Origin: Lachnospiraceae bacterium
GTDB taxonomy: Bacteria; Bacillota; Clostridia; Lachnospirales; Lachnospiraceae
Direction: 5' to 3'
Length of the DNA stretch: 64,000 nt
Assembly: GCA_022776445.1 (NCBI GenBank)
Contig: JALFHZ010000236.1
Span: forward strand, 11,266-75,265
Shown here: in pieces, positions 14,044-45,032 of the stretch
How positions within the stretch are numbered: position 1 is the first letter of the stretch
Layout: every line of letters begins with the position of its first letter
Program-made: the position numbers and the translations under genes
Notes under the pieces: generated by a model
Database searches by the model: none
The model's input: only the letters and a program-made list of their open reading frames with translations
Told to the model about the DNA's origin: nothing

Positions 14044-14077
14044 ATTATATCAGATTATCACAATAAGTAAAATTAAT
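14044..14077 (-). promoter_or_regulatory. gudD promoter (TTTACT-16-TATAAT) with shared ATTAAT element
   Basis: Minus strand ATTAAT-TTTACT-N16-TATAAT; the same 12-mer lies at 20623-20634 and 25772-25783. Confidence 0.6.
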
Positions 14078-20024: not shown

Positions 20025-20039
20025 ATTCTTTTCTCCTCC

Positions 20040-20537: not shown

Positions 20538-20599
20538 ACCCACATCTCCTTTTCCTATACCTTATTACCATTTTCTGAATGGCCGTTTCTTATGTATTT

Positions 20600-20634
20600 A
20601 ATTTAACACATTTCTTATTATAAGTAAAATTAAT
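20600..20634 (-). promoter_or_regulatory. tctB1 promoter (TTTACT-17-TAAATT, extended -10) with shared ATTAAT element
   Basis: AGTAAAATTAAT at 20623-20634 matches the gudD and garD promoters. Confidence 0.55.
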
Positions 20635-20666
20635 GATATTTAGATTAGACTTAATAATTTTACTTT

Positions 20667-24188: not shown

Positions 24189-25706
24189 TCAGGTAATCGG
24201 TGCCGGGTTAAAGATGCACATGTCATTGTGGAATCCATACAGATCACTGTAAGGCTGTCTCACACCGCTCGCAACATCCAGAATCATATCAAAGATCTCC
24301 TGACCAACATCGGCGATCGTCTTCTCGCCGGTAGCCACATCACCTGCGGAAATATCAATCAGATCAAACCAGTGATTCTTCATTTCATTGCGGCTGCAGA
24401 CCTTGATAACCGGGCTGATATCCAGACCATACGGGGTTCCGCGTCCGGTCATGAATACCTGCAGGCCGATACCGCTTGCTACCTGACTCGGTCCGCACAC
24501 GATATCACTTGCCGGAGTTGCTGCATAGATCAAGCCATGTTTAGTCGGCTTCTGCGCCGGAGAAAGTACTTCCACGATCTGGCTTGTCCCGCTCTTCGCA
24601 ATGCTGCCCATTGCCTTCTCAACGATATTTGCAAGGCCGCCTGCCTTGTTGCCGGGGGTCGGGTTCGCATCTCTGCCCACACCGCCCTTGGCCAGATAGT
24701 CATCATACCATTTCATCTCTTCAGCCAGTCGATCACGGGTATGCGCATCCGGGCAGCGTGCTGCCAGCATATGTACGCCGTCACGCACCTCAGTCACTTC
24801 ACTGAACATTACCGTAGCGCCGCCGCGCACCAACATATCCGCTGCGTAACCTGCACTTGGGTTTGCAGAAATACCGGAGAACGCATCACTGCCGCCGCAC
24901 TGCATACCGATCAGCAGATCACTTAACGGAAGCTCTTCTCTGTGTCTCTGGTTCAGTTTTTGCAGCTTCTTCTCTGCCATCTCCATAATCGCGTTCATCA
25001 TGGCATCATGACCTGCATAATCCTGCAGCGTCAGAACATTCTCAGGCGTGATATCCTCCGGAGGGAGCACCCGGTCATAAGTCAGTTTCTCGCAGCCCAG
25101 ACCTACTACCATGATTTCCCCGCCAAAATTCGGATGGCGGATGATGTTGGTGATCGCACGAATCGGAATATAAGCCAACGGTGCATTGATGGCCACACCG
25201 CAGCCGTATGGATGCGTCACAGCTACCACGCCGTCCACATTCGGATACTTCGGAAGCAGCTCGTGTTTAATCCGGTCAACTGCTACTTTCAAAACGCCTG
25301 CCGCACACTGAACGGTCGTAACGATGCCCAGCAGATTTCTGGTTCCTGCTGGTCCTTCTGCATTCCGATATCCCATCCATGTGGTTCTCGTCGGCATCGG
25401 AAGCTCCTCGTTCGGCACCAGATTCGTACCATACTCCATATCATCAACAGATGGGCTCTCCGGAAGATCCAGCATGTGTTCGTTGATCCAGTCACCCTTT
25501 TTAATATCGTTGATTGCATACCCAAGTACCACACCATAACGGATGATCTCTCCACCTGCCGGAATATCGCACAGTGCAATCTTATGTGCCTGCGGAATAT
25601 CCTGATTGGCAGTCAGACCTTCCATGACTTCCGTTCCGGCTTTCAGATCCTGAACAGCAACAACTACATTATCCTGTTCTTTGATCTTTACGTATAAACG
25701 TGCCAT
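24189..25706 (-). CDS. garD: Galactarate dehydratase (UxaA/GarD family)
   Basis: SAF N-terminal domain (DNVVVA...HKIAL), GTRNLLG, H.YGCGVAINAP, VGLGCEKL, GMQCGGSDAFSG and NPTPGNKAGGL. Confidence 0.93.
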   Translation of the reverse strand: MARLYVKIKEQDNVVVAVQDLKAGTEVMEGLTANQDIPQAHKIALCDIPAGGEIIRYGVVLGYAINDIKKGDWINEHMLDLPESPSVDDMEYGTNLVPNEELPMPTRTTWMGYRNAEGPAGTRNLLGIVTTVQCAAGVLKVAVDRIKHELLPKYPNVDGVVAVTHPYGCGVAINAPLAYIPIRAITNIIRHPNFGGEIMVVGLGCEKLTYDRVLPPEDITPENVLTLQDYAGHDAMMNAIMEMAEKKLQKLNQRHREELPLSDLLIGMQCGGSDAFSGISANPSAGYAADMLVRGGATVMFSEVTEVRDGVHMLAARCPDAHTRDRLAEEMKWYDDYLAKGGVGRDANPTPGNKAGGLANIVEKAMGSIAKSGTSQIVEVLSPAQKPTKHGLIYAATPASDIVCGPSQVASGIGLQVFMTGRGTPYGLDISPVIKVCSRNEMKNHWFDLIDISAGDVATGEKTIADVGQEIFDMILDVASGVRQPYSDLYGFHNDMCIFNPAPIT

Positions 25707-25748: not shown

Positions 25749-25783
25749 ATTATAATAGCCGCCTGTTAATTAGTAAAATTAAT
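25749..25783 (-). promoter_or_regulatory. garD promoter (TTTACT-17-TATAAT) with shared ATTAAT element
   Basis: AGTAAAATTAAT at 25772-25783, in the divergent garD/LysR intergenic region. Confidence 0.62.
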
Positions 25784-25876: not shown

Positions 25877-26782
25877 ATGGATGTCAAACAGATTGAATAC
25901 ATTGTAAAAATAGCCGATGAGCACAGCATTACCCGTGCCGCAGAAAAACTGTTCATCACCCAGTCTGCCCTGAACCAGCAGCTTCTTCGTCTGGAAAAGG
26001 ATCTCGGCGCACCGTTGTTTTTCCGAAGCAAGATGGATATGCAGCCCACTCCTGTGGGACATGTTTATCTGGAATACGCACGGGAAATCTTGCGTCTCAG
26101 GCAGAAAGCCTACAACATCATCAGTGATATGGCCCAGACCCAGAAGGGGCATCTGTCCATGGGCTTCACACCGGGAAGAGGCATCGAAATGTTTACCCAT
26201 ATCTATCCCGCCTTTCATCAGGCATTTCCGGGTGTGATTATCGAGCCAAAAGAACTGAGCGTACATCGACAGCAGCAGATGATTGCCCGCGGTGACCTGG
26301 ATATCGGTTTTCTGACACTGAATACACGGCAGCGAACTTCGGATGAATATATTGTTCTCGGAAGTGAAGAGATCGTCATGGCGGTTCCTGCAATCCACCC
26401 GGTATCCCGCTATGCTACACCGGCAGGAGAACCGTTTGCGGTTCTGGATATTGCTATGCTCCGACACGAGCCGTTCGTCCTGATGTATAAGGAATCCACC
26501 ATCCGTTCCACCATCGATGATATCTTTCGCACCTCCGGCTTCGTGCCCAATGTCCTGTTTGAGACATCGAGCAACAGTGCAATCATCTCCATGATCCAGG
26601 CACGCCTGTGCTGCGGTGTGGTTCCATACTTCTACGTAAAAGATCATCCAAAAGATATCTGCTGTTTTTCCTTTGAAAATCATCCAACCTGGGATATTGC
26701 AGCATGTTATCGGAAGGATGCCTACCTAAGCCATGCTGCGCAATATCTGATTGAACTGGTACGTGATTTCTGGTTCGGATGA
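25877..26782 (+). CDS. LysR-family regulator
   Basis: SITRAAEKLFITQSALNQQLLRLEKDLG; close paralogue of 23161-24063 (TPGRGI.MF...YPAFH). Confidence 0.94.
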   Translation: MDVKQIEYIVKIADEHSITRAAEKLFITQSALNQQLLRLEKDLGAPLFFRSKMDMQPTPVGHVYLEYAREILRLRQKAYNIISDMAQTQKGHLSMGFTPGRGIEMFTHIYPAFHQAFPGVIIEPKELSVHRQQQMIARGDLDIGFLTLNTRQRTSDEYIVLGSEEIVMAVPAIHPVSRYATPAGEPFAVLDIAMLRHEPFVLMYKESTIRSTIDDIFRTSGFVPNVLFETSSNSAIISMIQARLCCGVVPYFYVKDHPKDICCFSFENHPTWDIAACYRKDAYLSHAAQYLIELVRDFWFG

Positions 26783-26807: not shown

Positions 26808-27653
26808 TTATACCGCCTCGTACAGCTCTCTCATCTTCGCTCCGCAATACTCCGCATTTTCCGGCGTCGTATTTTCCAGAGTGCCGTAGATAAAGGGCTT
26901 TTCTTTTTTGATAAATTTCATGATCGGTGAGAAATCCATCTCTCCGGTACCTGCCCCGACTGCTTTCAGGCCATAACCTTCATTCACCCGGATAAAATCC
27001 TTGAAATGCACCATGGCAATGTCCGGTCCCAGAAGCTCCATAGCCTCTGCAAACACTTCCTCCCGGCGGTCCACATTATCCAGATCCAGCATATTCACCG
27101 GATCAAACAGCACCTGAAGATTGTGGGAACCGATCTCATCCAGCACGATACGTGCCCGTTTTGCGTTCCATACGATATGACGGGCTACCGGCTCAATTGC
27201 CAGAATTACACCGAACTGTTCCGCACAGCGCACCACCGGCTTCAGATTCCGGACAAACGTCATCAGCGCTTCCTCGGAACGGCATTCCGGGCAGAATTTA
27301 TACTCCGCATTCGGAGCACCTGTCTCGGTTCCGACCATGCCGCAGCCCAGCAGAGAAGCAAATCGGATATGTGCATAATATTTCTCCTGAGACTGGCGGA
27401 TTACCTCCGGATCCGGATGTGCCAGATTCAGATAATTGCCAAGCACTGCAATGTCCATCTCATTTTTTTCAAACAGATGCTTCAGATAATGTGCATAGCC
27501 CGGAGTCAGAGCAGATGGATCGCACGGATACTCTTTCATGGCCTTGCTGAGCGCCAGATGTGTGCAGGTATAACCTTTTTTCTTCACCACCGGAAGAAGC
27601 TCTTCCATCGGAAGCTTCTCTGCGTCATGAAGACGCAATCCCAACTGCAGCAT
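26808..27653 (-). CDS. Sugar phosphate isomerase/epimerase (xylose-isomerase-like TIM barrel)
   Basis: LAIEP, FDPVN, VHFKD, GTGEMDF and LEN metal-ligand pattern. Confidence 0.85.
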   Translation of the reverse strand: MLQLGLRLHDAEKLPMEELLPVVKKKGYTCTHLALSKAMKEYPCDPSALTPGYAHYLKHLFEKNEMDIAVLGNYLNLAHPDPEVIRQSQEKYYAHIRFASLLGCGMVGTETGAPNAEYKFCPECRSEEALMTFVRNLKPVVRCAEQFGVILAIEPVARHIVWNAKRARIVLDEIGSHNLQVLFDPVNMLDLDNVDRREEVFAEAMELLGPDIAMVHFKDFIRVNEGYGLKAVGAGTGEMDFSPIMKFIKKEKPFIYGTLENTTPENAEYCGAKMRELYEAV

Positions 27654-27656
27654 GCT

Positions 27657-28766
27657 TTATGCCTCCTTTTTTCTGCGGATCTGCTCGCTGACAGCCATCA
27701 TGCAGGCAGCCGTGCCATGCTGATTGTCCGTCATCCGTGCTTCGCTCACATAATATTCCGGCTTTCCGGTGCGGTCCTTCCGATTGTGGGGGTCAGGACC
27801 GGCCCCCAGGCCGGCGCTTGCGCAGATGCCATAGAGATGCCAGCCATCTGCTTCTTTCTTCAGATACGTATCCCTGATTCCGTCAATAATCTCACTGCCT
27901 TTGATTCCATACGCTCCCGGAAGCATTCCAAGACGCGCACCTTTCATCAGCGCGTAGGCAACCATCGCACTTCCGGAGGTTTCCGGATAGTTGCCCGGAA
28001 AACCCGGCAGATCAACCACCTGATAGAACATATGGGTCTCCGGATCCTGATACTCCAGAATGCCTTCCAGACCATTCTTGAAAAGCGGAACCAGTTCTTT
28101 TGCACGCGGTGTGCGTCCTTTCGCCAGTTCATAGACATCAGCCAGTGCCATCAGGTACCATCCCTCTGCCCTCAGCCATACGGACATGCTGCGTCCGGTC
28201 ACCGGATCTGCCCAGTCGGCCTTCCGGCTCACATCGCAGCCATGCACATACAGTTTCTTATCTTCACTCCACAGCAGACGGTGGGCGCTTTCAAACTGAT
28301 CCATGATATCATCCCAGCGATCCTCACCGTTTTCAACCAGCGACTGTGCATAGAACGGCATAGCCATATAAAGACCATCCAGCCACACCTGATTCGGATA
28401 GATATCCTTGTGCCAGAAATTGCCCGTTTCTGTGCGGGGATAATGCTCCAGAAATGCGTAAGCTTTCTTTACTGCCGCATCATAGCGCTCATCTCCCGTC
28501 AGGTTCCGCAGAATTCGCAGAGACTTGCCGAAGCTGACCTTATCAATATTATTTTCATTTTCTTTCCAGTTTGCAACAGAACCGTCCTCCAAAAGCAGCC
28601 ACCTGCTGTTGTCTGTAATATACCGGTTCCATTTTGCATCTCCGGTTGCATCGGCCAGATCGGATGCACCGATTACGCAGAGATCATCCTTGTAATTCCA
28701 GGGTTTATCATTGAGGAAATGCGGAAACGCCGTTTCCATATATTGAGAAAAATATTCCAACCACAT
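27657..28766 (-). CDS. GH105 unsaturated (rhamno)galacturonyl/glucuronyl hydrolase (YteR/YesR-like)
   Basis: WNY, GNFWHK, QVWLDGLYM, W.RA.GW and ETSGSAM; start at MWLEY with AGGAGG RBS; no signal peptide. Confidence 0.9.
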   Translation of the reverse strand: MWLEYFSQYMETAFPHFLNDKPWNYKDDLCVIGASDLADATGDAKWNRYITDNSRWLLLEDGSVANWKENENNIDKVSFGKSLRILRNLTGDERYDAAVKKAYAFLEHYPRTETGNFWHKDIYPNQVWLDGLYMAMPFYAQSLVENGEDRWDDIMDQFESAHRLLWSEDKKLYVHGCDVSRKADWADPVTGRSMSVWLRAEGWYLMALADVYELAKGRTPRAKELVPLFKNGLEGILEYQDPETHMFYQVVDLPGFPGNYPETSGSAMVAYALMKGARLGMLPGAYGIKGSEIIDGIRDTYLKKEADGWHLYGICASAGLGAGPDPHNRKDRTGKPEYYVSEARMTDNQHGTAACMMAVSEQIRRKKEA

Positions 28767-28782
28767 ATCGGTTTCCTCCTTG

Positions 28783-30885
28783 TCAGATACCGGCAAAGTC
28801 CGCCACCCGGTTCAGGATGCCTGCGGCCTCCCCCATGGTAACGAGACGTTCCGGTTCAAAGCAGCCGTCGGGCTCCAGTTTCATAAATCCGAAATAGAGT
28901 GCCCGCGCCACGTTGGTGCCATAATTGTTGCTCACCTGATCAACATCTGCACAGACCGGCATGGTACTGGATGCATTGCGGTAATTCACGCCGCAGGCCT
29001 GCATCGCCACAGTTGCCATCTCCTGACGCGTCACGTAACCATTCGGCATGGAGCCTTTCTGTGCATCCTGCGCAAGGAAACCGCTGCCAACCGCAATGCG
29101 CATTGCTTCGTCATATCCCTGTGCTCCTCTTTCCGCTCCGAATCGCTTTCCAGCTGCCAGCGGCAGCAGCATTTTCGCCAGCTGTCCTCTGGTGATCGGT
29201 TCACTGTCGATAATGGTATCGTTCTCATCGAGCATCCCGCGACAAAGCAGTCGAAGACGATCGTATTTCCCGTCCATCAAAATTTCGTGCGTTTCCGTTT
29301 TGCAGCTGTATTTCTGCTCCGCAAGTACACGATAACTGCTGCTTGTCTCTGCATTGTCATGTTGATCCACAGCTGTCACACGTACATATGCGGCCTGTTT
29401 CGGAATCACCAGATGTTCGCCATGGCCCGCATCCGTCCACGCTTCACCGTCCACGGATGTTTCCCAGTTAAAATGACATGCATCATGACCTCCGCAATAC
29501 TCGGCAGATGCATGTATCTGTGCTCCCTCCATCGGTACGCCCAGAATCCGGACGCTGCACGGACGCGGGAAATTCTTTCCGTTAATCTCGATTGCTTCCA
29601 GCACCGGTTCTTTCCAGTTCATACTCCGCATCGGCTGTCTGACACCATCGATCCGGATATTGCGCAGGACCAGGCCGGTGATCGGTACCGCATCAAACGC
29701 CTCCAGGAAAATCCCATAGTCCCCTCCATGAGCCGTTATATTTTCGATGGTAATATTACGGAACACCGGCAGATCATTGCCATTGGGTCCGTCTTCGTAC
29801 ATCATGGTGCCATGCACCGCTGCGCCATGGACGTGATCCATCACACTGTCTGCCAGAATCACATCCTCTACCTTGCCGCCGCGTCGTGCATTGGTCTTCA
29901 GACGCAGCGCATAGGTCAGATTCGGACTGCTGAAACGATTATTCATCGCCAGCACCCTTCGAATTCCGCCGCTCATCTCACTGCCGAGCGCCACGCCGCC
30001 ATGTCCGTCTGCAAATTCATTGTGCTCAATCAGCACATCTTCACAGGGAACCCTGGCGATTCTTCCGTCCCGGTCCCTGCCTGATTTCAGACTGATACAG
30101 TCATCTCCCGTATCGAAACGGCAGTTTACAATATGCACGCCGCTGCAGCTTTCCGGATCACAGCCATCGTTGTTGGCACCGTGACTGGACATGGTAACAC
30201 GATCCACCGTCAGACTTTTGCACATCACAGGATTCAGCTGCCACATCGGACTGTTGTGCAGGGTAAAGCCCTGCAGCAGCACCCGCTCGCAGCGGATCGT
30301 CTGCACAAAATTCGGTCTCAGATAATGTCCCGGCCCGAACACACGCTGTTCCACCGGTACTCCGTCCAGGTTCATCTGGCGAAGCGCTTTGCGGTCCTCC
30401 AGCTGCAGATCCTGTTTATCTGCAGACCATGCGTTTTCCACCTGATGATGCCAGTTCCACCAGTGCTGTGCGTCGGCACCGCCGTCCAGCACGCCCTCTC
30501 CGGTCAGAGCAATGTCATGGGCATCACAGGCATAAATCAGAGGGCTGAAATTATAGCACGGAGTTGCTTCCCAATGTGAAAACACCGTTGGATAATGAAG
30601 CTCCGGATTTTCATTGACAAAAGCGAGAACCGTGTCTTTGCACTGGAGGTGCAGCTCCACTTTGCTTTTCAAGTGCAGTGCGCCGGTCCGGTAACGTCCG
30701 GCCGGAAGGATCAGCTTTCCGCCGCCCTGACTGCTCACCCGGTCAATCGCCTGCTGCAACCGCTCCGTCTGAACCGCATCGCTGTCCGGATTGATTCCGA
30801 ACTGCGCGGCATGATATTCCCGGGCCGGAATCATCGGTTTTTCGATTCGTTTCAGGATTGTTTCCTTCAGTTGTAATTTATCCAT
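28783..30885 (-). CDS. GH28 polygalacturonase with C-terminal SLH-like repeats
   Basis: NNDG, GDDC, GHGG, GSEMSGG and RLKT catalytic motifs; PITRGQLA, YVTRQEMA and F.P...VT..EA SLH-like repeats; no signal peptide. Confidence 0.88.
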   Translation of the reverse strand: MDKLQLKETILKRIEKPMIPAREYHAAQFGINPDSDAVQTERLQQAIDRVSSQGGGKLILPAGRYRTGALHLKSKVELHLQCKDTVLAFVNENPELHYPTVFSHWEATPCYNFSPLIYACDAHDIALTGEGVLDGGADAQHWWNWHHQVENAWSADKQDLQLEDRKALRQMNLDGVPVEQRVFGPGHYLRPNFVQTIRCERVLLQGFTLHNSPMWQLNPVMCKSLTVDRVTMSSHGANNDGCDPESCSGVHIVNCRFDTGDDCISLKSGRDRDGRIARVPCEDVLIEHNEFADGHGGVALGSEMSGGIRRVLAMNNRFSSPNLTYALRLKTNARRGGKVEDVILADSVMDHVHGAAVHGTMMYEDGPNGNDLPVFRNITIENITAHGGDYGIFLEAFDAVPITGLVLRNIRIDGVRQPMRSMNWKEPVLEAIEINGKNFPRPCSVRILGVPMEGAQIHASAEYCGGHDACHFNWETSVDGEAWTDAGHGEHLVIPKQAAYVRVTAVDQHDNAETSSSYRVLAEQKYSCKTETHEILMDGKYDRLRLLCRGMLDENDTIIDSEPITRGQLAKMLLPLAAGKRFGAERGAQGYDEAMRIAVGSGFLAQDAQKGSMPNGYVTRQEMATVAMQACGVNYRNASSTMPVCADVDQVSNNYGTNVARALYFGFMKLEPDGCFEPERLVTMGEAAGILNRVADFAGI

Positions 30886-30915
30886 GAGCAATCTCCCGAT
30901 TTTTACATATTAATC

Positions 30916-32019
30916 TCATTCATTCTTCCATTTAATCAGCCTTTTGAGATGTTCTCCCAGTTTTTCTCCATGCCACTGATGCGGTCCTTCACAGATCTCA
31001 TGCAGCAGAAGCTCCGGTGCTCCCATCAGCTGATAGGCTTTCTGTATGATCTTCACCTGCTCCACGGCATTCACAATTCCGCGCGGTCCGTTCAGACGGT
31101 CTTCCCGGCAGGATTGCACCAGCAGCGGCCGCGGCGCAATCAGACTTGCAATATCACCCATATCCAGATGTTCCCACAAATGGGGAACATAGTTGCAGGA
31201 ACAATTGTTGCTGAGCGTCAGAAGTGCATCCCGATATCCGTAGAGATATCCACTGATCACAGACAGCCTCACTCGTTCATCCAGTGCAGAAAGCATCAGT
31301 GTCTGCATGCCGCCGCCGGAAAATCCCAGACAGCTGATGGCATTACAGTCCCACTCGCCGCGTTCAAACAGATAATCAACAGCCCGCATCAGATCCCAGG
31401 TCAGCATTCCTGCCACCGGAATTCCAAGAGGCTCTCCCATATGAGCCAGACGGTAACAGTCCCCGCTCAGTGCCTTTGCCGGATCCTGCGTATCCGCAAG
31501 ATCTTCTCTCCGCTCTCCAAAACCGCGGCAGTCCGGACAGACCGCCACAAAACCGAGTTTCGCCAGCTGTAATCCATAATCATACTGATAATGGATAATC
31601 TTATCTTCCACTGCCGTATATTCCCGCAGACCGGCAACCGTATATTTCCCCGCTCCGTTATGCCCGGGCGGGCACAAAAACGGCCGGGTATCAGCTCCTG
31701 CTCCCACCGGAATCAGCAGATACATAGGCATCCATACCTCCGGTTCCACCTGAATGTTCAGATGTTCTCTCCGGATTCCTCCCGGCAGCAGAACCACATC
31801 ATCGATCATCGGATGGAGCGGGCAGTTTTCCATTTTATCCAGCCCCAGAAGCTCATGGAGAAGCCTGCGCATCGCCTTCTGCCACTGTACAAAATCTTCC
31901 CGAGTCTCTCCCGCAAAAAAGTCCCTGCGGGCATACCGGTCAAACTTACGCAGCATGGACGGAAGTGTTCCATAGCAGGCTGTAATCTCAGGCAGTTCTT
32001 TCTTATTATCAATCATCAT
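30916..32019 (-). CDS. Alpha/beta-hydrolase esterase (dienelactone hydrolase/abhydrolase_7-like)
   Basis: PPGH, PD..GFGER, D..RAVDYL, GFSGGG nucleophile elbow and LIAPRPL. Confidence 0.85.
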   Translation of the reverse strand: MMIDNKKELPEITACYGTLPSMLRKFDRYARRDFFAGETREDFVQWQKAMRRLLHELLGLDKMENCPLHPMIDDVVLLPGGIRREHLNIQVEPEVWMPMYLLIPVGAGADTRPFLCPPGHNGAGKYTVAGLREYTAVEDKIIHYQYDYGLQLAKLGFVAVCPDCRGFGERREDLADTQDPAKALSGDCYRLAHMGEPLGIPVAGMLTWDLMRAVDYLFERGEWDCNAISCLGFSGGGMQTLMLSALDERVRLSVISGYLYGYRDALLTLSNNCSCNYVPHLWEHLDMGDIASLIAPRPLLVQSCREDRLNGPRGIVNAVEQVKIIQKAYQLMGAPELLLHEICEGPHQWHGEKLGEHLKRLIKWKNE

Positions 32020-33538
32020 TTACTTCACTCTGTCCGGCAGCTGCCGCAGCAGACGCTGCACGTTTCTGTTTCAGATGATCTGAAAGGAATGGCCATACCA
32101 CACAGAATACAGAGACCAGAAGCAGTGCCGCAGACAGCGGACGGGTAAAGAACTCCGCATAACTGCCGTGTGCATAGCTGATACCCTGGCGGAAGTAACG
32201 CTCCAGCTTACTGGACAGAATAAATGCCAGTACCAGTGGAGAAGTCGGGAGTCCTGCCATACTCATAAAGATTGCCAGCAGACACAGAGCTACCATCACA
32301 TAAATGTTGAACATGGTATTGGAAATGCCATATCCACCGATGTAGCAGATTACCAGAATCACTGTGTACAGATAATGATACGGAACCTTCAGAATATATG
32401 GGAACCAGCGTTTGGTAATAATCTGAACGATGTAGGTTACAATTGCGGATACCATGACACAGGCAAAAATCAGCATTGCCAGATCCGGCTGCTCGGTCAT
32501 AAACAGAGGCCCCGCCTGCAGACCATGAATGGTCAGACCTGCAATCAGCATTGCAGTGATACCGTCACCAGGAATGCCCAACGCCATCATCGGAATCAGC
32601 GCACCGCCCAGGGAAGCGTTGTTTGCTGTCTCAGAAGCCCATACACCGGCAGGATTGCCTTTGCCGAAGGACTCCGGGTTTTTGCTGATGCTCTTGGCAT
32701 AACCATACGCTACCATGTTGGAAATACCGGAACCCATGCCCGGCAGAAAACCGATCCAGAGACCTGCTGCAAATGCAAACGCAATTGTCCTGATGTTTTC
32801 AAAAATATCCTTAAAACTAACGCCAAGGCCTTTCATGTTCACGACATCTGCTTCCGGCATCTTTGCTTCGCCGCGCGCAGAATCACGGATGATCTGGCAC
32901 ATTGCGAACATACCCAGCATCTGTGCTACGGTACTGATGCCAGAGGTCAGATAAACATTGCCGAACGTAAAACGAACCGCACCGTTGATGGGATCCATAC
33001 CGATGCATCCCATCAGCAGACCGATGCCGGCAGCCATAATTCCTTTGAAAATATTGCCTTTTGACAAGGAAGCAATCAGAGTAATTGCACAGAAGCACAG
33101 CGAGAAATACTCCCACGGTCCCAGATGCAGTGCAAATTCTGCAATCACCGGAGACAAAACCGTTGCCAGTGCAACGGAACCAACGGTACCAATAAAGGAT
33201 GCGGTCATACCGATGCCCAGCGCCTTACCCGCCTGACCGTTCTTGGTCATCGGGAAACCATCGAAGCAGGTTGCGATCGCGGAAGAAGAACCAGGGATAC
33301 CAATCAGTACCGCGGAAATAAAGGTTCCGGATACGCCGCCGATCCAGATTGCAAGCAGCAGTACGAAAGAGGTCTCCGTGGAAAGACCAAAGGTAACCGG
33401 CAGCAGCAGAGCAATACCAAGAGTTGCGGAAAGTCCCGGAATCGCACCAAATACGATGCCAAGGGATACCATTGCAACGATCAAAAGCAGATTGATCGGC
33501 TGCAGACAGATCATCAACGCATTTATATATTCAGCCAT
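32009..33538 (-). CDS. tctA: TTT permease TctA
   Basis: GAIPGL, GIPGS..AIATCFDGFPM, GFLPGMGSG and ETANNA...IP..ALGIPGD. Confidence 0.95.
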   Translation of the reverse strand: MAEYINALMICLQPINLLLIVAMVSLGIVFGAIPGLSATLGIALLLPVTFGLSTETSFVLLLAIWIGGVSGTFISAVLIGIPGSSSAIATCFDGFPMTKNGQAGKALGIGMTASFIGTVGSVALATVLSPVIAEFALHLGPWEYFSLCFCAITLIASLSKGNIFKGIMAAGIGLLMGCIGMDPINGAVRFTFGNVYLTSGISTVAQMLGMFAMCQIIRDSARGEAKMPEADVVNMKGLGVSFKDIFENIRTIAFAFAAGLWIGFLPGMGSGISNMVAYGYAKSISKNPESFGKGNPAGVWASETANNASLGGALIPMMALGIPGDGITAMLIAGLTIHGLQAGPLFMTEQPDLAMLIFACVMVSAIVTYIVQIITKRWFPYILKVPYHYLYTVILVICYIGGYGISNTMFNIYVMVALCLLAIFMSMAGLPTSPLVLAFILSSKLERYFRQGISYAHGSYAEFFTRPLSAALLLVSVFCVVWPFLSDHLKQKRAASAAAAAGQSEVNDD

Positions 33539-33553
33539 GGTTCTTGCCCCTCC

Positions 33554-34021
33554 TTATTCAAACAATGCGCCTGCCGGCAGCTTCACCTGGAAGCCATAGA
33601 CAAACATCGCATAAAGACCTGCGGTTACCAGAATGGAAATAATGATTGTCGGAACCGTTTTTACCTCACTGTTGCCCTTCAGATCATGAATGAATGCATA
33701 GGTAGCAAACGGAGTCGTAATCAGAAATCCCAGATAAGTCATTGCAATTGCATAGATAATCAGCATCAGATAGCTCTTCGTAATCTTCCGTGCACCGCCC
33801 TTCGGGAAGTATGGTTTCTCCTCTTTTGCACGATCCATGTAACCCTTAATGATCAGCGCAATGGAGCTCATTGCAATCAGTGTAATCGCGACATACGGAA
33901 GCAGACGCGGACCAGGTTCCAGAAGTTTGGCCGGCTGCTTAACCGACTGGGTCATGAACAGAAAGAATGCGCAGCCAATGAGACCCACAATTCCGGTGAC
34001 GGTATCTCTTCGCAGTTTCAT
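33554..34021 (-). CDS. tctB: TTT small subunit TctB
   Basis: EPGPRLLP and FQVKLPAG motifs; start MKLRRD. Confidence 0.88.
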   Translation of the reverse strand: MKLRRDTVTGIVGLIGCAFFLFMTQSVKQPAKLLEPGPRLLPYVAITLIAMSSIALIIKGYMDRAKEEKPYFPKGGARKITKSYLMLIIYAIAMTYLGFLITTPFATYAFIHDLKGNSEVKTVPTIIISILVTAGLYAMFVYGFQVKLPAGALFE

Positions 34022-34133
34022 AAGTAATCCCCTTTCTTTTAAAATGTCCCGGGATTTTTTCTCCCGGGACACGCGATTTTCTTTTTCCTGTAACCGTTTC
34101 GGACGGATACGTATACAAACACAGCTTCAGAAA

Positions 34134-35228
34134 TTACTCCTGAACAAACATATCCAGATTTTTAGCAATCTCTACATCCTGTGCAAACTCTTCTTCCTGA
34201 AGCTTTCTGGATTCTTCCAGATCATGCCAGCCAGGAATGTTGCCGATGCTTGCAATACCGGCATTCACAGTCTCATCCTCAACAACAGCCTTCATTGCTG
34301 CATTCATGTTCTTTACCATGGTTTCATCCATGCCAGCCGGTCCCAGCAGATAGTGGAATACAGACATGGTACAGTTGTCAAAGCCCTGCTCCTGAAGAGT
34401 CTTGTAGTTATCCGGCAGTTCTTCCGGATATTCGGAAATGGTGGTTCCGTCAGAAGATACGGTACCGATTACTTTCAGTTTTCCGGCCTTCTCATACTCC
34501 AGCGCATTGCCGACACCTACAACACCGATATCAATGAAACCGCCGGCCAGGTTAGTCAGACGGTCAGACTCCGATGCACACTCCACAGAGTTCAGCTCAA
34601 TGCCGGTTGCCGCTGTCAGCTTGCCAAAGAGGAAGGTATTTGCACCCGCTGCCGGCATACCTGCATTCAGTTCGCCCGGATGTGCCTTTGCATATTCTAC
34701 AAAGCCTGCAAAGTCATCATATGGCGCATCAGCCGGTACTGCCAGAGTGGAAAATCCGTTATCCTGCAGACATGCAATCACAGTGAAATCCTTCAGCGGA
34801 TTTACTTCTGCGTTGCCGGTAATATACTGAATATTTAAAGCAGAGGTAGCAACTGTCAATGTCGTACCATCCGGTTTTGCGCTTGCCACGGTCTGGTGTC
34901 CTACGGTATTGCTGTCGTAGTTGGTTACGGTAGTCTTCAAGCCATAGATACGGTTCAGACCTTCGCTGTAGTAACGGATACCCAGATCGGAACCGCCGCC
35001 TGCCTTACCCGGAACTACCAGAGTAATGGTCTCACCTTTCGGAAATCCAATATCATCGGCTGCTGCTTCCGCTGCTGCGGTTGTCTCACCTGCGGCTGCC
35101 TCTGCCTTGGTCTCTGCCTGAGCTGCTGTTGTAGCCGCGGTCTCAGTCTTGCTTCCGCACGCAGTCATGCCCATGACAGCAACAGCTGCAACACCGGATA
35201 ATAAGATACGATAAATACTTTTTCTCAT
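34134..35228 (-). CDS. tctC: TTT substrate-binding lipoprotein TctC
   Basis: Lipobox MTAC, VVPGKAGGGSD, KPDGTTL; most similar in this window to the TctC at 1602-2705. Confidence 0.92.
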   Translation of the reverse strand: MRKSIYRILLSGVAAVAVMGMTACGSKTETAATTAAQAETKAEAAAGETTAAAEAAADDIGFPKGETITLVVPGKAGGGSDLGIRYYSEGLNRIYGLKTTVTNYDSNTVGHQTVASAKPDGTTLTVATSALNIQYITGNAEVNPLKDFTVIACLQDNGFSTLAVPADAPYDDFAGFVEYAKAHPGELNAGMPAAGANTFLFGKLTAATGIELNSVECASESDRLTNLAGGFIDIGVVGVGNALEYEKAGKLKVIGTVSSDGTTISEYPEELPDNYKTLQEQGFDNCTMSVFHYLLGPAGMDETMVKNMNAAMKAVVEDETVNAGIASIGNIPGWHDLEESRKLQEEEFAQDVEIAKNLDMFVQE

Positions 35229-35541
35229 AACGCTTCTCTCCTTTTATTATTGTCCGTGCAGAGTGCCCTCTGCCTTATTATTAAGAACCGGTTCTCAACA
35301 CTCTTAACGAAAAAGCTGAAACTCTCAAATGGTTTTTGTATATTCTGTCTTTATTTCAACCCCTCTTGTGTTTACAAATTGATTATAGCGAATTCACCGG
35401 AATTTTACAAAATCCAATTGTTTATATCTTTCATATCATTTTAGTTATAGTTGTTGACTTCTGTACCGGAGTTTGATAAAACACCATTAGAAAGATATCT
35501 GACTGATACCGTCTGATCTTACAAGAAAGGAGTCCGCTATC

Positions 35542-37470
35542 ATGAATACACGTCAGCTTTATTATCTTGTCACAATTTCCGATTCCGGCAGCCTTTCCCG
35601 TGCTGCCCAGATACTCGGGATCTCACAGCCGGCATTGAGTAAATTTCTGGCAGAATACGAGGATGATCTGGGATTTCTGATTTTTCTCCGCTACCACAGG
35701 CAGCTGACGCCTACCGCAGTCGGCCGCTATGTAATCCAGTGCGCGCAGCGGATTCTGGACGAACAGACACGCATGCTGCAGACACTGCGTGCTGCCACGG
35801 ACAGCAACCACGCCCGCATCCGGCTTGCAACAGCGCCGAACCGCGGCGCCATCATTTACAGTCGGATTTATAAACAGTTCTCTCACCGATATCCGGATAT
35901 CTCTCTGACTCTGACTGAACTGTATGCTTCCGACCAGCCGGGAGCGATTCAGCACGGGCAGATCGATCTTGCCATCGGTTCCGGAAACATTTCCGACAAG
36001 GTCACTGATATACCGATCGCCTATGAAGAACTTCTGGTTTCCCTTCCGGTCTCACATCCGCTGGCACTTGCAGACCGGATCCGGCTTTCCGATCTGCGGG
36101 ATACCCCGTTCGTACTGCAGGGACCGCGCCACAGCATCCGGATTCTGGCAGAGGAACTGTTTGAAGAAGCCGGTTTCAATCCGGTTGTCACGTTCGAATC
36201 CAACGATGTTCTTCTGGTAGATTCCATGATGCATCAGGCTGTTGGCGTCGGTCTGGTTTCGCAGGCTCATGTATTTCCCTGCGATGAACTTGTTTATCGT
36301 TCCCTGGATCCACCAATCCACCAGACACTGCATCTGCGCTATCCGCTTGGGCACACACTGACAGAGCCGGAACGTTATCTGGCAGGACTCCTGGCCCGTG
36401 AACGGCTGACGGACCCGCGTTATCAGGCAATCAATTCACCAGAGGTAGAAGAGCTGCTGCGCATTGTGGATCAGGATCAGAACGGTATTTCTGACACAAC
36501 TGTTTCGGAACATGTCACCGTCGGTGCTGCTTCTGCACGTTACAAAGCGCCGGAACTCAACCTGAACTCTCAGCTCCTCAAATATATCATCGCCATCGTG
36601 GATGAAAAGAGCCTGACCAAAGCAGCGGAGAAATTCTACCTGACGCAGCCGGCACTCTCCCGCCATCTACGCAATGCGGAGGAAATGCTCTGCGCGCATC
36701 TGTTTACACGGGTACACAACCGTCTGCAGCCCACCAATGCCGGAAAAATTTTTGTCAATTTCGCAAGAAATATGCTGCAGATCGAGACAGAAATGAGCGA
36801 ACAGCTTCACGATTACCGCATCGGTCACGGCGGCGGTATTTATCTCCAATGTGATCCGGCCCTGACACCGCGTATTCAGGAATGTGCAGCAAAGGAATTT
36901 CACCGTCTGCACCCGGATATCAACCTTTCTCTTGCAGAAGGCACACAGGAGGAAGCGCAGGAAGCTCTGCTCAATGCTTCCGCTGATTATGGCCTTTACT
37001 TTTCCTGCGAAAAGGAACACCCTATCCTTTCCAGCCGGATTCTGGCAGAAAGCGAGCTGGTATACTGTTTTTCATCGAAACCACCGGCCGACCGACCGGC
37101 AGATTCCGAACCGGTCGGCCCCATGGCTCCGCGCCCGGTTATGCTGGCACCGGTTAACAGCGCCCTTCGTGTGGAGCAGGACCGACTTCTGTCCGAAATC
37201 TTTGACTCACCGCCTCCGATCGTCTGTGAAGCACAGATCCATATTCTGCAGCTTTTAGCTGCCAAGGGCGCTGCAGACACCATCCTGCCCGTCCATGATC
37301 TGCCACAGGAAGCATTGCCGCGATGCAGATCCTTTTTCCAGCCTCAGCGTTGGTTTCTTCTGCTGGCAAACCACCCCGGCCGCAATCTTCCGCCATCCGT
37401 CAGGGATCTTGTACGTCTGCTGGACAGCACATTTGAGGCATTTTTTTCTGCAGCTGTTCAGGAGAATTAA
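35542..37470 (+). CDS. Tandem double LysR fusion protein (two HTH plus two effector domains)
   Basis: 642 aa with HTH1 GSLSRAAQILGISQPALSKFL and HTH2 KSLTKAAEKFYLTQPALSRHL, in one reading frame with no internal stop. Confidence 0.92.
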   Translation: MNTRQLYYLVTISDSGSLSRAAQILGISQPALSKFLAEYEDDLGFLIFLRYHRQLTPTAVGRYVIQCAQRILDEQTRMLQTLRAATDSNHARIRLATAPNRGAIIYSRIYKQFSHRYPDISLTLTELYASDQPGAIQHGQIDLAIGSGNISDKVTDIPIAYEELLVSLPVSHPLALADRIRLSDLRDTPFVLQGPRHSIRILAEELFEEAGFNPVVTFESNDVLLVDSMMHQAVGVGLVSQAHVFPCDELVYRSLDPPIHQTLHLRYPLGHTLTEPERYLAGLLARERLTDPRYQAINSPEVEELLRIVDQDQNGISDTTVSEHVTVGAASARYKAPELNLNSQLLKYIIAIVDEKSLTKAAEKFYLTQPALSRHLRNAEEMLCAHLFTRVHNRLQPTNAGKIFVNFARNMLQIETEMSEQLHDYRIGHGGGIYLQCDPALTPRIQECAAKEFHRLHPDINLSLAEGTQEEAQEALLNASADYGLYFSCEKEHPILSSRILAESELVYCFSSKPPADRPADSEPVGPMAPRPVMLAPVNSALRVEQDRLLSEIFDSPPPIVCEAQIHILQLLAAKGAADTILPVHDLPQEALPRCRSFFQPQRWFLLLANHPGRNLPPSVRDLVRLLDSTFEAFFSAAVQEN

Positions 37471-37529: not shown

Positions 37530-37916
37530 TCATGCTTTTCTTTCGCTTAATAATGCTTTCAATCTGGTGATTTCCTGAAGGGCAGCCTTCCGCTCTTCCT
37601 CGGCTCGCTGCTTCTCTTCCTCGGCCCGCTGCTTCTCTTCCTCGGCCCGCTGCTTCTCTTCCTCGGCCCGCTGCTTCTCTTCTTGGATCCGCTGCTTCTC
37701 TTCCTCGTTCCGCTGCTTCTCTTCCTCGATCCGCTGCTTCTCTTCCTCGATCCGCTGCTTCTCTTCCTCGATCCGCTGCTTCTCTTCCTCGACACGACGA
37801 AGTTCTTCCTGCTGCCTTTTTTCCTCTTCCTTCATCCGCTCGAGTTCTTCCTGCTGAACTTCAATCATATATTGCACCGTATTTGCATCCAGAATACTCA
37901 ACTCTTTCGAAAACAT
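37530..37916 (-). CDS. Putative internally initiated small Rpn C-terminal protein (128 aa)
   Basis: In-frame ATG (MFSKEL...) preceded by AAGGAG at 9 nt spacing inside rpn. Confidence 0.55.
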   Translation of the reverse strand: MFSKELSILDANTVQYMIEVQQEELERMKEEEKRQQEELRRVEEEKQRIEEEKQRIEEEKQRIEEEKQRNEEEKQRIQEEKQRAEEEKQRAEEEKQRAEEEKQRAEEERKAALQEITRLKALLSERKA

Positions 37917-41984: not shown

Positions 41985-43124
41985 TTATTTCATGTTCATG
42001 CCGACTCTGATCATCCGGAACAGCCGGTCTGCCGCATTGGCATACAGCTCTTCTGCGCGATCCAGAGCTTCTGTAATATCCATGGCACCGTTGATCGTAG
42101 GAATGATGCTCTCCACACCAAACTCATAGATTTTCTCAGCACCATTTCCCATACCGCCGACAATCGCCACAGCCGGGACCCCTTTTTTCCGGCAGCGCAT
42201 GCCGATTCCGCTCGGCACCTTGCCGAACGCAGACTGCCAGTCAATCCGTCCCTCTCCGGTAATCACCAGATCAGTACCGTCCAGCAGGTGATCAAAATCA
42301 ATCAGATCGAGTACCGTCTCAATACCGGATTTGAGCTCCGCGTGCAGGAATACACACAGTGCAGCCCCCAGACCGCCGGCCGCACCTGCGCCTGCAATCT
42401 TATCCACATCCTTGCCCAGCTTCTTCTCAATCACGGCCGCATACTGCTTCATACCTGCCTCAAGCTCGTCCAGAATCTCCGGTGTACCGCCCTTCTGCTT
42501 TCCAAAGGTATATGTAGCACCCTCCGGTCCGGTCAGTGGATTGTTCACATCACACATAACCGTAATCTCAGCCTCCGCTACTGCCGGATGGATACCGCTC
42601 ACATCAATATCAGCCACACGCGCCAGATCTGCTCCAAAACCTTCCAGTTCTTTTCCGTCTTCATCCAGGAACCGCACGCCCAGTGCACGCATAGCGCCCA
42701 TTCCACCGTCATTGGTCGCGCTTCCGCCGATCGCGATGGAAAGTTTGCGATAACCTGCATCCAGGGCATCTTTAATCAGTTCACCGGTACCAAAAGTCGT
42801 TGTGTGCAGCGGATTGCGTTTTTCAACCGGAACCATCGGAAGTCCGGATGCCGCCGCCATCTCAATGATTGCAGAATCACTATGAAATACACCATAAGAA
42901 GCTTCCGTTTCCTCCATCAGCGGTCCATGAACCGGAATTCTGCGCATCTCACCTTTTGTCACAGCAATTACAGCATCTACCGTCCCCTCACCGCCGTCTG
43001 CGATCGGCACTCCCATGGTCTCACAGCCCGGAAAAATCCGGTTTGCAGAATCAGTCAGCAGACGAATAATCTGATCAGATGACAGTGTCCCTTTAAATGA
43101 ATCTGAAGCGAATAAAAATCTCAT
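41985..43124 (-). CDS. garK: Glycerate kinase (GarK/GlxK family)
   Basis: ASDSFKG, PIADGGEGT, EMAAASGL, GGSATNDGG, GAAGGLG and TGEG..D.QS..GK. Confidence 0.95.
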   Translation of the reverse strand: MRFLFASDSFKGTLSSDQIIRLLTDSANRIFPGCETMGVPIADGGEGTVDAVIAVTKGEMRRIPVHGPLMEETEASYGVFHSDSAIIEMAAASGLPMVPVEKRNPLHTTTFGTGELIKDALDAGYRKLSIAIGGSATNDGGMGAMRALGVRFLDEDGKELEGFGADLARVADIDVSGIHPAVAEAEITVMCDVNNPLTGPEGATYTFGKQKGGTPEILDELEAGMKQYAAVIEKKLGKDVDKIAGAGAAGGLGAALCVFLHAELKSGIETVLDLIDFDHLLDGTDLVITGEGRIDWQSAFGKVPSGIGMRCRKKGVPAVAIVGGMGNGAEKIYEFGVESIIPTINGAMDITEALDRAEELYANAADRLFRMIRVGMNMK

Positions 43125-43223
43125 ACATCCTCCTCTATGCACAATAGACCGGCGCAAAATAATAGGAGGAACGCCGGTCTATTGCATGAATCTATATGGT
43201 AGTTTATGTAGCTGTCTTAAACC

Positions 43224-44123
43224 TTAGAGCAGACCTGCCTTGGTCATCTCAGTTCTGATTCTGTCTAATACCGGCCCCTCCGGAGTAGCCAGATTTGGCT
43301 TATATGGAAGACCAATATTACGTCCGCGCAGATTTGCCATATCCTTAGCAGCAACCGGGAAGCTTGCCGGATCCATGGAAAGACGAACCGGATTCAGCTT
43401 GAACTGAGCTTCCAGAGAACCCTGCAGATCTCCTGCTACGAATTTGTTGTAAACATCCGTAATCAGTTCCGGCATAAAGTTTGCTGCTGTGCAGACACCG
43501 CCTACTGCGCCATGGCACATGGAAGCGTATAACAGAGTATCTTTACCGCCAAATACTTTGAAATTAACGTCTCTGGTTCTGCGGATAAACTCTGCGGTCT
43601 GAGTGATATCACCGCTGGTATCCTTCATACCAACAATGTTCTCAACTTCATGAGCCAGACGGTCTACCAGATTGCCGGACAGGGTGTAGCCAACACGTCC
43701 AGGGTTGTTGTAAAGCAGTACCGGAGTCTCCGGAACAGCCTCAGCGATCGTCTTGAAGTGCAGGAACAGCTCCGTCTCAGTTGGCTTTAAAAACATCGGC
43801 TGCAGGATGGAGATACCTGCTGCACCGTTTGCCACTGCCATCTTTGCCAGACGAACACATTTCTTGGTGCTGATCGCACCGATACCAAAGTATACCGGAA
43901 CTCTGCCTGCTGCCTGATCAACCATGATCTTCAGACCGCGTTCCATCTCATCTTCTTCAATCACATAGAACTCACCGTTGCTGCCGAATGCCAGAACACC
44001 CAGAACGCCGCCCTCAATGACATAATCAACCTGTTCTCTTAATTTTGCTTCATCGATCATCTCATTCTCATCGATTGGAGTGAGAATCGGAACTACAACA
44101 CCTTTAATAAAATCTGTATTCAT
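43224..44123 (-). CDS. DapA/NAL-family Schiff-base lyase; probable 5-keto-4-deoxy-aldarate aldolase
   Basis: GSNGE, YNNP and GMKDTSG motifs; sits between garR and garK. Confidence 0.85.
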   Translation of the reverse strand: MNTDFIKGVVVPILTPIDENEMIDEAKLREQVDYVIEGGVLGVLAFGSNGEFYVIEEDEMERGLKIMVDQAAGRVPVYFGIGAISTKKCVRLAKMAVANGAAGISILQPMFLKPTETELFLHFKTIAEAVPETPVLLYNNPGRVGYTLSGNLVDRLAHEVENIVGMKDTSGDITQTAEFIRRTRDVNFKVFGGKDTLLYASMCHGAVGGVCTAANFMPELITDVYNKFVAGDLQGSLEAQFKLNPVRLSMDPASFPVAAKDMANLRGRNIGLPYKPNLATPEGPVLDRIRTEMTKAGLL

Positions 44124-44147
44124 GATCTTCTCCTTTTGGCACTCTTA

Positions 44148-45032
44148 TTATTTTACAACACTTACACCAGCGATCTTCTCATAGTATTTTACGATAGCGG
44201 AATGGTCATCCTTATCGCAGCCTTCAGCTCTTAAGAACTGCATAACTTCCATCAGCTGAGCGGTCAGCGGAGCCGGGGAGCTGATTGCATGTGCTGCGTT
44301 CAGAGCGTTATTCAGATCCTTGATGTGCAGCTCGATACGGAAGCCCGGTTTGTAGTTGCCTGCCAGCATCATCGGTGCCTTAGCATCCATAACGGTGGAA
44401 CCAGCCAGACCGCCGCGGATTGCCTGATATACCAGCTCCGGATCGGTGCCAGCCTTCTTAGCGAAGGTCAGAGCCTCAGATACAGCAGCGATGTTGATTG
44501 CTACTACCATCTGGTTAGCCAGCTTTGCAACGTTGCCGGAACCCAGTTCGCCAACATATACAACAGAACCTGCCATTACCATCAGCATATCATAGTACTT
44601 ATCGAACAGTTCTTTCTTACCGCCGCACATTACAGACAGGGTACCGTCGATTGCCTTCGGTTCTCCACCGGATACCGGGCAGTCCAGCATCTCAATGCCA
44701 TACTTTGCAGCCTCTGCACCGATTGCCTTGCTCTCGGTTGGGTCGATGGAGCTCATGTCGATCAGAACCAGACCTGGCTTTGCGCCTTCAGCAACACCGT
44801 CTTTACCCAGAACTGCTGCTCTTACGTGAGGAGAGTTCGGAACCATGGTGATAACCACCTCAACCTGAGATGCTACCTCTTTGCCGCTCTCTGCTGCTGT
44901 TGCGCCGCAGGAAACAAGATCTGCAACTGCTTCTTTATTAAAATCGAATACTACCAGCTCGTGGCCTGCCTTTACCAGGTTCTTAGCCATCGGTCTTCCC
45001 ATAATTCCTAATCCAATAAATCCAATTTTCAT
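44148..45032 (-). CDS. garR: 2-hydroxy-3-oxopropionate (tartronate semialdehyde) reductase
   Basis: GFIGLGIMG.PM, DMSSI.P, D.PVSGGEPKAIDGTL, KLANQ and FRIELHIKDL. Confidence 0.95.
   Translation of the reverse strand: MKIGFIGLGIMGRPMAKNLVKAGHELVVFDFNKEAVADLVSCGATAAESGKEVASQVEVVITMVPNSPHVRAAVLGKDGVAEGAKPGLVLIDMSSIDPTESKAIGAEAAKYGIEMLDCPVSGGEPKAIDGTLSVMCGGKKELFDKYYDMLMVMAGSVVYVGELGSGNVAKLANQMVVAINIAAVSEALTFAKKAGTDPELVYQAIRGGLAGSTVMDAKAPMMLAGNYKPGFRIELHIKDLNNALNAAHAISSPAPLTAQLMEVMQFLRAEGCDKDDHSAIVKYYEKIAGVSVVK

Follow-up and report, generated by a model that had tools for sequence, protein, structure and literature searches.

A tripartite tricarboxylate transporter operon with pectin-type glycoside hydrolases in Lachnospiraceae: a candidate system for the uptake of pectin-derived glycosides

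Since all known substrates of tripartite tricarboxylate transporters (TTT), which are abundant yet poorly characterised, are small carboxylates, a TTT operonic with glycoside hydrolases raises the question of what it imports. We analysed a stretch of 64,000 nucleotides (the window) from a 3.16-Mb Lachnospiraceae metagenome-assembled genome (MAG) that is 87.6% complete, in which such genes form a minus-strand string at 26808-35228. The string reads tctC-tctB-tctA-esterase-GH28-GH105-TIM barrel, and Pfam supports each of the seven genes at the coordinates listed in Table 1. Neighbouring genes are spaced by -14 to 61 nt in the list of open reading frames, and the string is divergent from a gene encoding a fused, double LysR regulator, as the original prediction had described for this tightly packed operon. 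A promoter-like site is predicted upstream of tctC, no convincing terminator was found when the operon interior was scanned, and the seven genes are likely co-transcribed, judging from the sequence. As shown below, the locus is a real and conserved module that lacks prior characterisation.

Table 1. Features of the operon and of its surroundings in the window
Feature	Coordinates	Strand	Support and remarks
TctC solute-binding lipoprotein	34134..35228	-	Pfam PF03401, 85.9 bits
TctB small membrane subunit	33554..34072	-	Pfam PF07331, 71.9 bits
TctA large membrane subunit	32009..33538	-	Pfam PF01970, 453.4 bits
Alpha/beta-hydrolase esterase	30916..32019	-	Abhydrolase_7, Pfam 54.5 bits; GFSGG nucleophile elbow
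GH28, exo-polygalacturonase-like, 702 aa	28783..30891	-	PF00295, 80 bits
SLH-like C-terminal extension of GH28	28783-29570	-	residues 440-702; Pfam SLH 29.5 bits
GH105 unsaturated uronyl hydrolase	27657..28796	-	Pfam PF07470 (GH88/105), 229 bits
Xylose-isomerase-like TIM barrel, putative metal-dependent sugar isomerase/epimerase	26808..27653	-	Pfam PF01261; begins 3 nt past GH105
Promoter-like site TTGTAA-17-TATAAT	35382..35410	-	5' of tctC; consensus scan, predicted only
Double LysR, 642 aa	35542..37470	+	Pfam: two HTH_1 and two LysR_substrate domains; divergent from tctC
PDDEXK_2 (Rpn-type) transposase/nuclease gene	37530-38813		directly after double LysR
Single LysR regulator	25877..26782	+	Pfam; between operon 3' end and garD
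Galactarate dehydratase GarD	24189..25706	-	TIGR03248 equivalog, 739.6 bits (cut-off 730.85); SAF, GD_AH_second and GD_AH_C domains
Aldarate lower pathway: glycerate kinase, candidate DHDPS-family aldolase, tartronate-semialdehyde reductase-like	41985..45032	-	Pfam, NCBIfam; ~4.5 kb past regulator
Lone tctC	1602-2705
tctC-A-B set	15124-18436
Extra tctB-A pair	18519-20543
12-bp element AGTAAAATTAAT, exact	14066-14077; 20623-20634; 25772-25783		5' of gudD; tctB2/gudD2 region; 5' of garD
Same element, one mismatch	20653-20664

The transporter and the enzymes of the operon

The three transporter components all score above their cut-offs and their genes are adjacent, which is the architecture of the TTT family (TC 2.A.80). 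The N terminus of TctC displays a lipobox (..GMTAC/GS) followed by an Ala/Thr/Glu-rich linker. In the AlphaFold2 (AF2) model (pLDDT 82.7), residues 9-57 form a disordered linker, after which the chain adopts the typical fold of a TTT solute-binding protein (SBP). Foldseek matched this model with a probability of 1.00 to MatC, BugE, TBP, BugD, TphC and AdpC, with TM-scores of 0.71-0.84 (normalised to the target). Together, lipobox and model identify TctC as an exported SBP with a Bug/TctC-type II fold. The PGxxGGxxD loop is conserved, with P73, G77, G78 and D81 invariant, and identity to the nearest solved structures, all of them small-carboxylate TTT SBPs, is 18-22%. A whole-library HMMER search showed the TctC orthogroup to be a tight, isolated clade, the next relatives being only ~40% identical. 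Orthologues of TctC are 57-100% identical, those at 79-100% being plentiful in gut metagenomes. TctA of the operon is 83% identical to its Ornithospirochaeta orthologue and shares no more than 40-41% identity with either of the other TctA proteins encoded in the window. Likewise, TctC shares 27% identity with the TctC of the aldarate region, the corresponding value for TctA being 40%.

In agreement with the original prediction, none of the four enzymes starts with a signal peptide, and the same is true of their orthologues in ~25 species. Across the class A species defined below, TctC orthologues bear either a lipobox or a signal peptide. The best PDB match of the GH28 protein is the exo-poly-alpha-D-galacturonosidase of Thermotoga maritima (3jur, E 3.4e-111), with an alignment that begins at residue 7, and the catalytic motifs NND, GDD, GHG and RLK are readable in the translation, which places the protein in family GH28. 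It also matches the NCBIfam model of the BT4155 alpha-D-galacturonidase, with scores for this and other equivalog models that are far below the cut-offs. By analogy with its closest solved homologue, the enzyme would release galacturonate exo-wise.

The original reading overlooked that the GH28 protein ends in an extension of ~250 aa with S-layer homology (SLH)-like repeats, which also weakly matches the SLH domain of Sap (E 0.025). Every TTT-linked GH28 (679-721 aa) has this extension yet no signal peptide, in contrast to the GH28 proteins linked to ATP-binding cassette (ABC) transporters (~512 aa) and to the T. maritima enzyme (448 aa), which have no such extension. A six-frame scan of the 87.6% complete MAG for PF00395 (E <= 0.001) returned zero matches, missing the GH28 tail itself, and is therefore insensitive to other diverged SLH-like repeats. 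Possible roles for the tail are oligomerisation, tethering to the membrane or transporter, or non-classical export.

The GH105 protein matches 4wu0 (a YteR-like protein from C. acetobutylicum, E 1.9e-59) and YteR (E 2.8e-42) in the PDB, which places it in family GH105. The esterase gene, which shares 11 nt with the end of tctA, encodes a protein only distantly related to solved esterases, its best PDB match being the putative acetyl xylan esterase 3nuz (E 1.8e-11). Membership of the CE15 glucuronoyl esterases is not supported, since the GCE_fung score of 22.2 bits is below the 27-bit Pfam cut-off and OtCE15A matches only residues 285-326 (E ~4e-4). The esterase gene is missing from one cassette (L004) that is otherwise identical.

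A sequence search of the PDB with the TIM barrel protein gave no match. In its AF2 model (pLDDT 95.4), the nearest folds, which share 13-22% identity with it, are those of ketose 3-epimerases, UlaE, YcjR and keto-glucal hydratase, and E154, D184, H216 and E260 are invariant. The subfamily is 57-93% identical across Lachnospiraceae, Oscillospiraceae, Faecalibacterium and Spirochaetales (loci L011-L090). Its gene is usually coupled translationally to that of GH105, and in some operons KduI/KduD are encoded alongside. The protein is likely a new enzyme of unsaturated-uronate metabolism, in a subfamily without a characterised member. A role as a replacement for KduI was ruled out since KduI and KduD share an operon with a TIM barrel orthologue in L083-85 and L076-82. 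A hydroxypyruvate isomerase function is unsupported: there is no match to the Hyi family, and some of the cassettes that have the gene lack aldarate genes.

Conservation, architectures and genomic surroundings

We next consider how widespread the cassette is, using a locus set made of the contexts retrieved from TctC and the TIM barrel plus 80 species-level loci, screened by tblastn. The full cassette of double LysR, TctCBA, (esterase), GH28, GH105 and TIM barrel is syntenic in >20 species, so that the tctABC-GH28/GH105 co-location, a survey of which accompanied the original prediction as a proposed check, is conserved across families and phyla; glycosidases were present in three of the three contexts looked up from TctC. 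This arrangement, with a GH28 of 679-721 aa and with or without the esterase, we call class A. Its carriers are Hungatella, Enterocloster, [Clostridium] clostridioforme, Lachnoclostridium, Anaerobium, Velocimicrobium and rumen Ruminococcaceae, together with three Faecalibacterium MAGs and several Spirochaetales, in which GH28 is sometimes missing. In class B (Oscillospiraceae L083-85 and Lachnospiraceae L088), the order is KdgA-KdgK-KduI-KduD-SBP_bac_1-GH105-permease-permease-GH28-TIM-DUF624, and the transporter role is filled by a CUT1 ABC oligosaccharide importer. Class C (L076-82) reads TIM-KduI-GH28-GH105-KduD and has a UxaA-like gene. The TIM barrel gene of most Faecalibacterium genomes stands alone, among phage and housekeeping genes.

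When 400 other Lachnospiraceae genera were sampled, only two had a TctC orthologue. Comparison of the Lachnospiraceae proteins with those of gut spirochaetes (L008/L009/L034/L038) gives identities of 83% for TctA, ~60% for TctC and 74-81% for the TIM barrel. Since its occurrence is scattered and TctA retains 83% identity across phyla, the module is patchy and probably mobile, and these sequence identities point to a recent transfer between phyla.

The double LysR is part of the conserved arrangement. A fused regulator of 639-653 aa is kept beside tctC in L001 (7749-9668), L002, L004, L010, L039 and others, and it adjoins tctC in every class A locus with coverage. In a sister TTT locus (L096, 1544-3469), whose TctC is 40% identical, there are instead two separate, adjacent LysR genes encoding 325 and 314 aa, which suggests that the double LysR is the product of a gene fusion. 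It may act as a covalent heterodimer sensing two effectors. The single LysR between the operon end and garD has the same position in Anaerobium and Velocimicrobium. On the other side, the slot occupied in the window by the PDDEXK_2 gene is taken in Velocimicrobium and L004 by a gene for a GalrD-like dehydratase of the MR_MLE (enolase) superfamily, which may reflect an insertion or a replacement at this site.

The window as a whole is an island of TTT, LysR and sugar-acid genes, in which further TTT genes are interleaved with two glucarate-dehydratase homologues. The original statement that a TTT is the only transporter present consequently holds within the operon and not for the window, which has three more groups of TTT genes (Table 1). 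The two other TctA genes (15124-16629 and 18519-20024) are 93% identical, with a single tctC between them, which confirms a duplicated membrane module. No CUT1 ABC importer (SBP_bac_1 plus two BPD_transp_1) was found between positions 24 and 38 kb of the window.

The galactarate dehydratase named in the original prediction passes its equivalog cut-off, and a mis-called altronate dehydratase is excluded by the full-length TIGR03248 score. Its proposed link to the operon, possibly a functional one, gains support: in most architectures, GarD, GarR and a dihydrodipicolinate synthase (DHDPS)-family protein, or a GalrD-like enolase, are encoded within the cassette or beside it. The garD gene of the window, on the other hand, shares the 12-bp element AGTAAAATTAAT with the other TTT and gudD genes. 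This element has three exact copies, against 0.32 expected by chance, and was absent from the tctC-lysR2 intergenic region when it was searched for there. Its presence at gudD, at the second TTT and at garD but not at the operon fits a separate aldarate regulon.

Aldarate genes are variously integrated into the cassettes of other species (L008/34/38, L029, L033/36, L015). In L015, L039, L033 and L008, garD has become part of the cassette operon itself. GarR (55-78% identical) and DHDPS (59-83%) orthologues occur in L008, L029 and L033-L040, within the cassette operon in L008, L029, L033 and L039, while the DHDPS of L023 is only 40% identical. In L039/40, GarD, GarR, the candidate DHDPS-family aldolase and glycerate kinase are all fused into one cassette operon. 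At 444 bits, GarR exceeds the equivalog cut-off for tartronate-semialdehyde reductase (397 bits). The MR_MLE protein from the operon of the closest TctC relative is 40-43% identical to those encoded beside the double LysR in L002, L004 and L029, and the best family match of these proteins, a weak one, is L-talarate/galactarate dehydratase. Overall, TTT-linked cassettes pair with aldarate genes, whereas ABC-linked cassettes pair with KduI, KduD, KdgK and KdgA and have no aldarate genes.

The source genome encodes eight TctC, seven GH88/105, two GH28, three UxaC and two KduI proteins, and a scan of the 87.6% complete MAG found no PL1 lyase. The presence of UxaC and KduI together with this negative result fits a cross-feeder. 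A second set of genes for pectic oligomers is also present, with a CUT1 ABC SBP and permeases that are 54-66% identical to those of L085 and with its own GH28 (49%) and GH105 (47%); it is split over the ends of two contigs, C29 (13007-15928) and C181 (1-4200).

What the transporter may import

Taken together, these findings make it plausible that the operon, under LysR control, serves to scavenge small acidic glycosides derived from pectin, with all enzyme specificities predicted from homology. We put the probability that the TTT imports a pectin-derived glycoside, oligomers with an oxidised end included, at about one half, based on gene context. Outside the cell, the TctC lipoprotein would bind a short uronide, which could be di- or tri-galacturonate, its 4,5-unsaturated counterpart generated by the pectate lyases of other organisms or, possibly, a partly esterified or reducing-end-oxidised form, and TctAB would use an ion gradient for uptake. 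In the cytoplasm, the esterase might take off an ester or open a lactone, GH105 would free the unsaturated non-reducing-end residue as 5-keto-4-deoxyuronate and the exo-GH28 would free galacturonate units singly. The TIM barrel enzyme might then isomerise or epimerise one keto-sugar-acid product, and the products would be handed on to KduI/KduD, UxaC and the aldarate pathways, whose genes lie elsewhere in the genome.

Several lines of evidence support glycoside import. An exo-GH28 and a GH105 in the cytoplasm, as predicted here, would need a glycoside from outside the cell, and the TTT is the sole transporter of the conserved operon. In related cassettes, the equivalent slot is occupied by a CUT1 oligosaccharide importer. 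Because the ABC-linked set brings its own GH28 and GH105, the TTT-linked pair would be redundant unless separately supplied, and a supply of its own is most plausible. Finally, we count in favour that a distant TTT paralogue sits among the aldarate genes and shares their element AGTAAAATTAAT, which the operon lacks. Uptake of oligogalacturonides by the TTT, as originally proposed, is thus backed by synteny, by enzymes without export signals and by the CUT1 importer in the equivalent slot, and it is called into question by the company that the nearest TctC relatives keep.

These relatives (~40% identical) lie in MR_MLE dehydratase-TctCBA operons typical of monomeric sugar acids, and they head a series of observations that weigh against glycoside import. 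No solved TTT SBP binds a ligand larger than terephthalate or adipate-class acids, and the model of TctC gives a generic TTT SBP fold, so the ligand is one that we infer from gene context. An aldarate dehydratase (GarD or GalrD-like MR_MLE) accompanies most TTT-linked cassettes, often in the same operon, and the gene context leaves galactarate itself, or oligomers ending in galactarate, as live substrate options. SLH modules normally anchor extracellular proteins to the wall, and the GH28 tail therefore sits uneasily with a cytoplasmic enzyme. Some Spirochaetales have a GH28-GH105-TIM trio without an adjacent transporter, showing that transporter adjacency is not obligatory, and co-transcription of the seven genes is itself something we infer.

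Two alternatives start from the same aldarate genes. The TTT might import only a monomeric C6 sugar acid (galactarate, a related aldarate or galacturonate), leaving the hydrolases to depend on a transporter encoded away from the operon, for instance the ABC system, which the genome does encode together with its own GH28 and GH105. Every characterised or solved TTT SBP binds small carboxylates, a TTT has been predicted to take up galactarate/glucarate in Halomonas (PMC5507952), genes of the sister TctC clade share an operon with an acid-sugar dehydratase of the enolase superfamily, and GarD or a talarate/galactarate-dehydratase-like MR_MLE is found beside or inside most TTT-linked cassettes. 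We nevertheless hold this possibility to be rather doubtful. The tctCBA genes are always fused to the esterase/GH genes, whereas the aldarate genes shift position and are sometimes absent (L010), and the promoter element at garD in the window is the one found at the other TTT/gudD genes and is missing from the operon. Moreover, a second GH28/GH105 pair without a supply is hard to explain when the ABC system has its own, and it is an oligosaccharide ABC importer that fills the transporter slot in related cassettes. The other alternative, a special case of glycoside import, is that the substrate is an oligogalacturonide, saturated or 4,5-unsaturated, whose reducing end is oxidised to galactarate or its lactone. 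TctC would recognise the open-chain aldarate end, as its ancestors did free aldarates, the esterase would open the lactone or remove esters, GH105 and GH28 would strip the uronates, and galactarate would go through GarD, the DHDPS-type aldolase, GarR and glycerate kinase. Such a substrate would explain every gene of the spirochaetal TctCBA/Est/GarR-DHDPS-GarD-GH105-TIM operon, which is without GH28, as well as the Ruminococcaceae operon TctCBA-Est-GH28-GH105-TIM-GarR-DHDPS-GarD-glycerate kinase. It would also fit a GarR that exceeds the tartronate-semialdehyde reductase cut-off and the split of Kdu/Kdg and aldarate genes between ABC-linked and TTT-linked cassettes, and plant oligogalacturonide oxidases (OGOX) make such oligomers via a lactone intermediate that hydrolyses to galactarate (PMC7773757). 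We still regard it as improbable, because no GarD is within reach in some cassettes (L010, L004), garD in the window is apparently regulated with the other TTT, and no known enzyme cleaves GalA-galactarate bonds. Both the monomer and the aldarate-ended oligomer follow from the pattern of aldarate genes, which is compatible with either.

A target outside pectin, for example conjugates of esterified uronates or the unsaturated glucuronides that lyases release from other glycans, is very improbable. GH88/105 does include unsaturated glucuronyl hydrolases, the esterase is distant from any characterised enzyme with weak CE15-like signals, and the TIM barrel lies outside all characterised subfamilies. 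However, the GH28 protein bears a strong resemblance both to an exo-polygalacturonase specific for galacturonate and to the model of the BT4155 alpha-D-galacturonidase, GH105 belongs with pectic enzymes of the YteR type, and related cassettes contain KduI, KduD and UxaA-like genes. Taken furthest, import of pectin-derived glycosides would make this TTT lineage the first secondary, SBP-dependent glycoside importer of its family, specialised for galactarate-ended oligogalacturonides (OGOX-type or unsaturated lyase products), and the locus a complete, horizontally mobile system for oxidised pectin, in which the esterase is a lactonase or de-esterase and the TIM barrel a new 5-keto-4-deoxyuronate enzyme; in this full form, we see it as an outside chance.

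If uronide oligomers are indeed taken up, the chemical range of the TTT family would widen, and a way to cross-feed on pectin fragments without ATP would be open to Hungatella, Enterocloster, some Faecalibacterium and gut spirochaetes; the operon would be a defined and widely distributed marker of this trait. The recurrent fusion with galactarate genes points to a possible, undescribed microbial fate of oxidised oligogalacturonides. Three parts without prior characterisation are of interest in their own right: the GH105-coupled TIM barrel, the fused double LysR and the SLH-like tail on a GH28 without signal peptide.

Comparison with known systems

The TctCBA/Bug-type TTTs (citrate TctC, BugD/BugE, AdpC, MatC and TphC/TBP) share with the present system the three-component architecture, the Pfam families, an extracytoplasmic SBP, the PGxxGGxxD loop and the fold. 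Unlike these, the present SBP is a lipoprotein of the Gram-positive type that has a long linker and is only distantly similar in sequence to the solved ones. Ligands of solved TTT SBPs are malate, glutamate, aspartate, terephthalate, adipate/oxoadipate and nicotinate/citrate, whereas the ligand implied here, a uronide of ~350-550 Da, would be the largest of the family and the first that is glycosidic. An operon with cytoplasmic glycoside hydrolases is likewise undescribed for characterised TTTs. The Halomonas TctABC of the GguR regulon, a predicted aldarate importer (PMC5507952), lies beside galactarate/glucarate catabolic genes, and aldarate genes likewise accompany the present cassette. Loci of this Halomonas type are, however, without glycoside hydrolases, and in the window it is a different TTT paralogue that occupies the aldarate regulon.

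According to the original prediction, no characterised TTT is known to import oligosaccharides, and our targeted full-text literature search found no paper tying a TTT to GH28, GH105, oligogalacturonides or glycoside import either. The text of a 2018 review of TTT and TRAP (tripartite ATP-independent periplasmic) transporters does not contain the words "oligosaccharide" and "disaccharide", and a 2026 review of pectin use in the gut names only Sus-like and ABC uptake, with ABC alone for Gram-positive bacteria (PMC13501991). The system thus puts a TTT in a new genomic context and, probably, in a new chemical one.

Among the enzymes, the intracellular exo-polygalacturonase of T. maritima (3jur), which lies in a hexuronate gene cluster, is closest to the GH28 catalytic domain. 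It likewise has no signal peptide, and this implies that imported oligogalacturonides are trimmed in the cytoplasm. The present protein differs from it by its SLH-like extension and by its partners, GH105, the esterase and the TTT. The same role that we propose here, delivery of short pectic oligomers to cytoplasmic enzymes, is that of TogMNAB (CUT1 ABC) and TogT in Dickeya and of YesOPQ/YtcQP-type ABC systems in Bacillus. The Tog and Yes systems are ATP-driven ABC transporters or a GPH symporter, whereas the TTT is an ion-driven secondary transporter with an SBP and has no sequence relationship to them. The related GH105-GH28-TIM cassettes of class B do use a CUT1 ABC importer, with DUF624. 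By architecture, therefore, the transporter is a bona fide TTT, which by context works like the TogMNAB/CUT1 oligogalacturonide importers to which it is unrelated.

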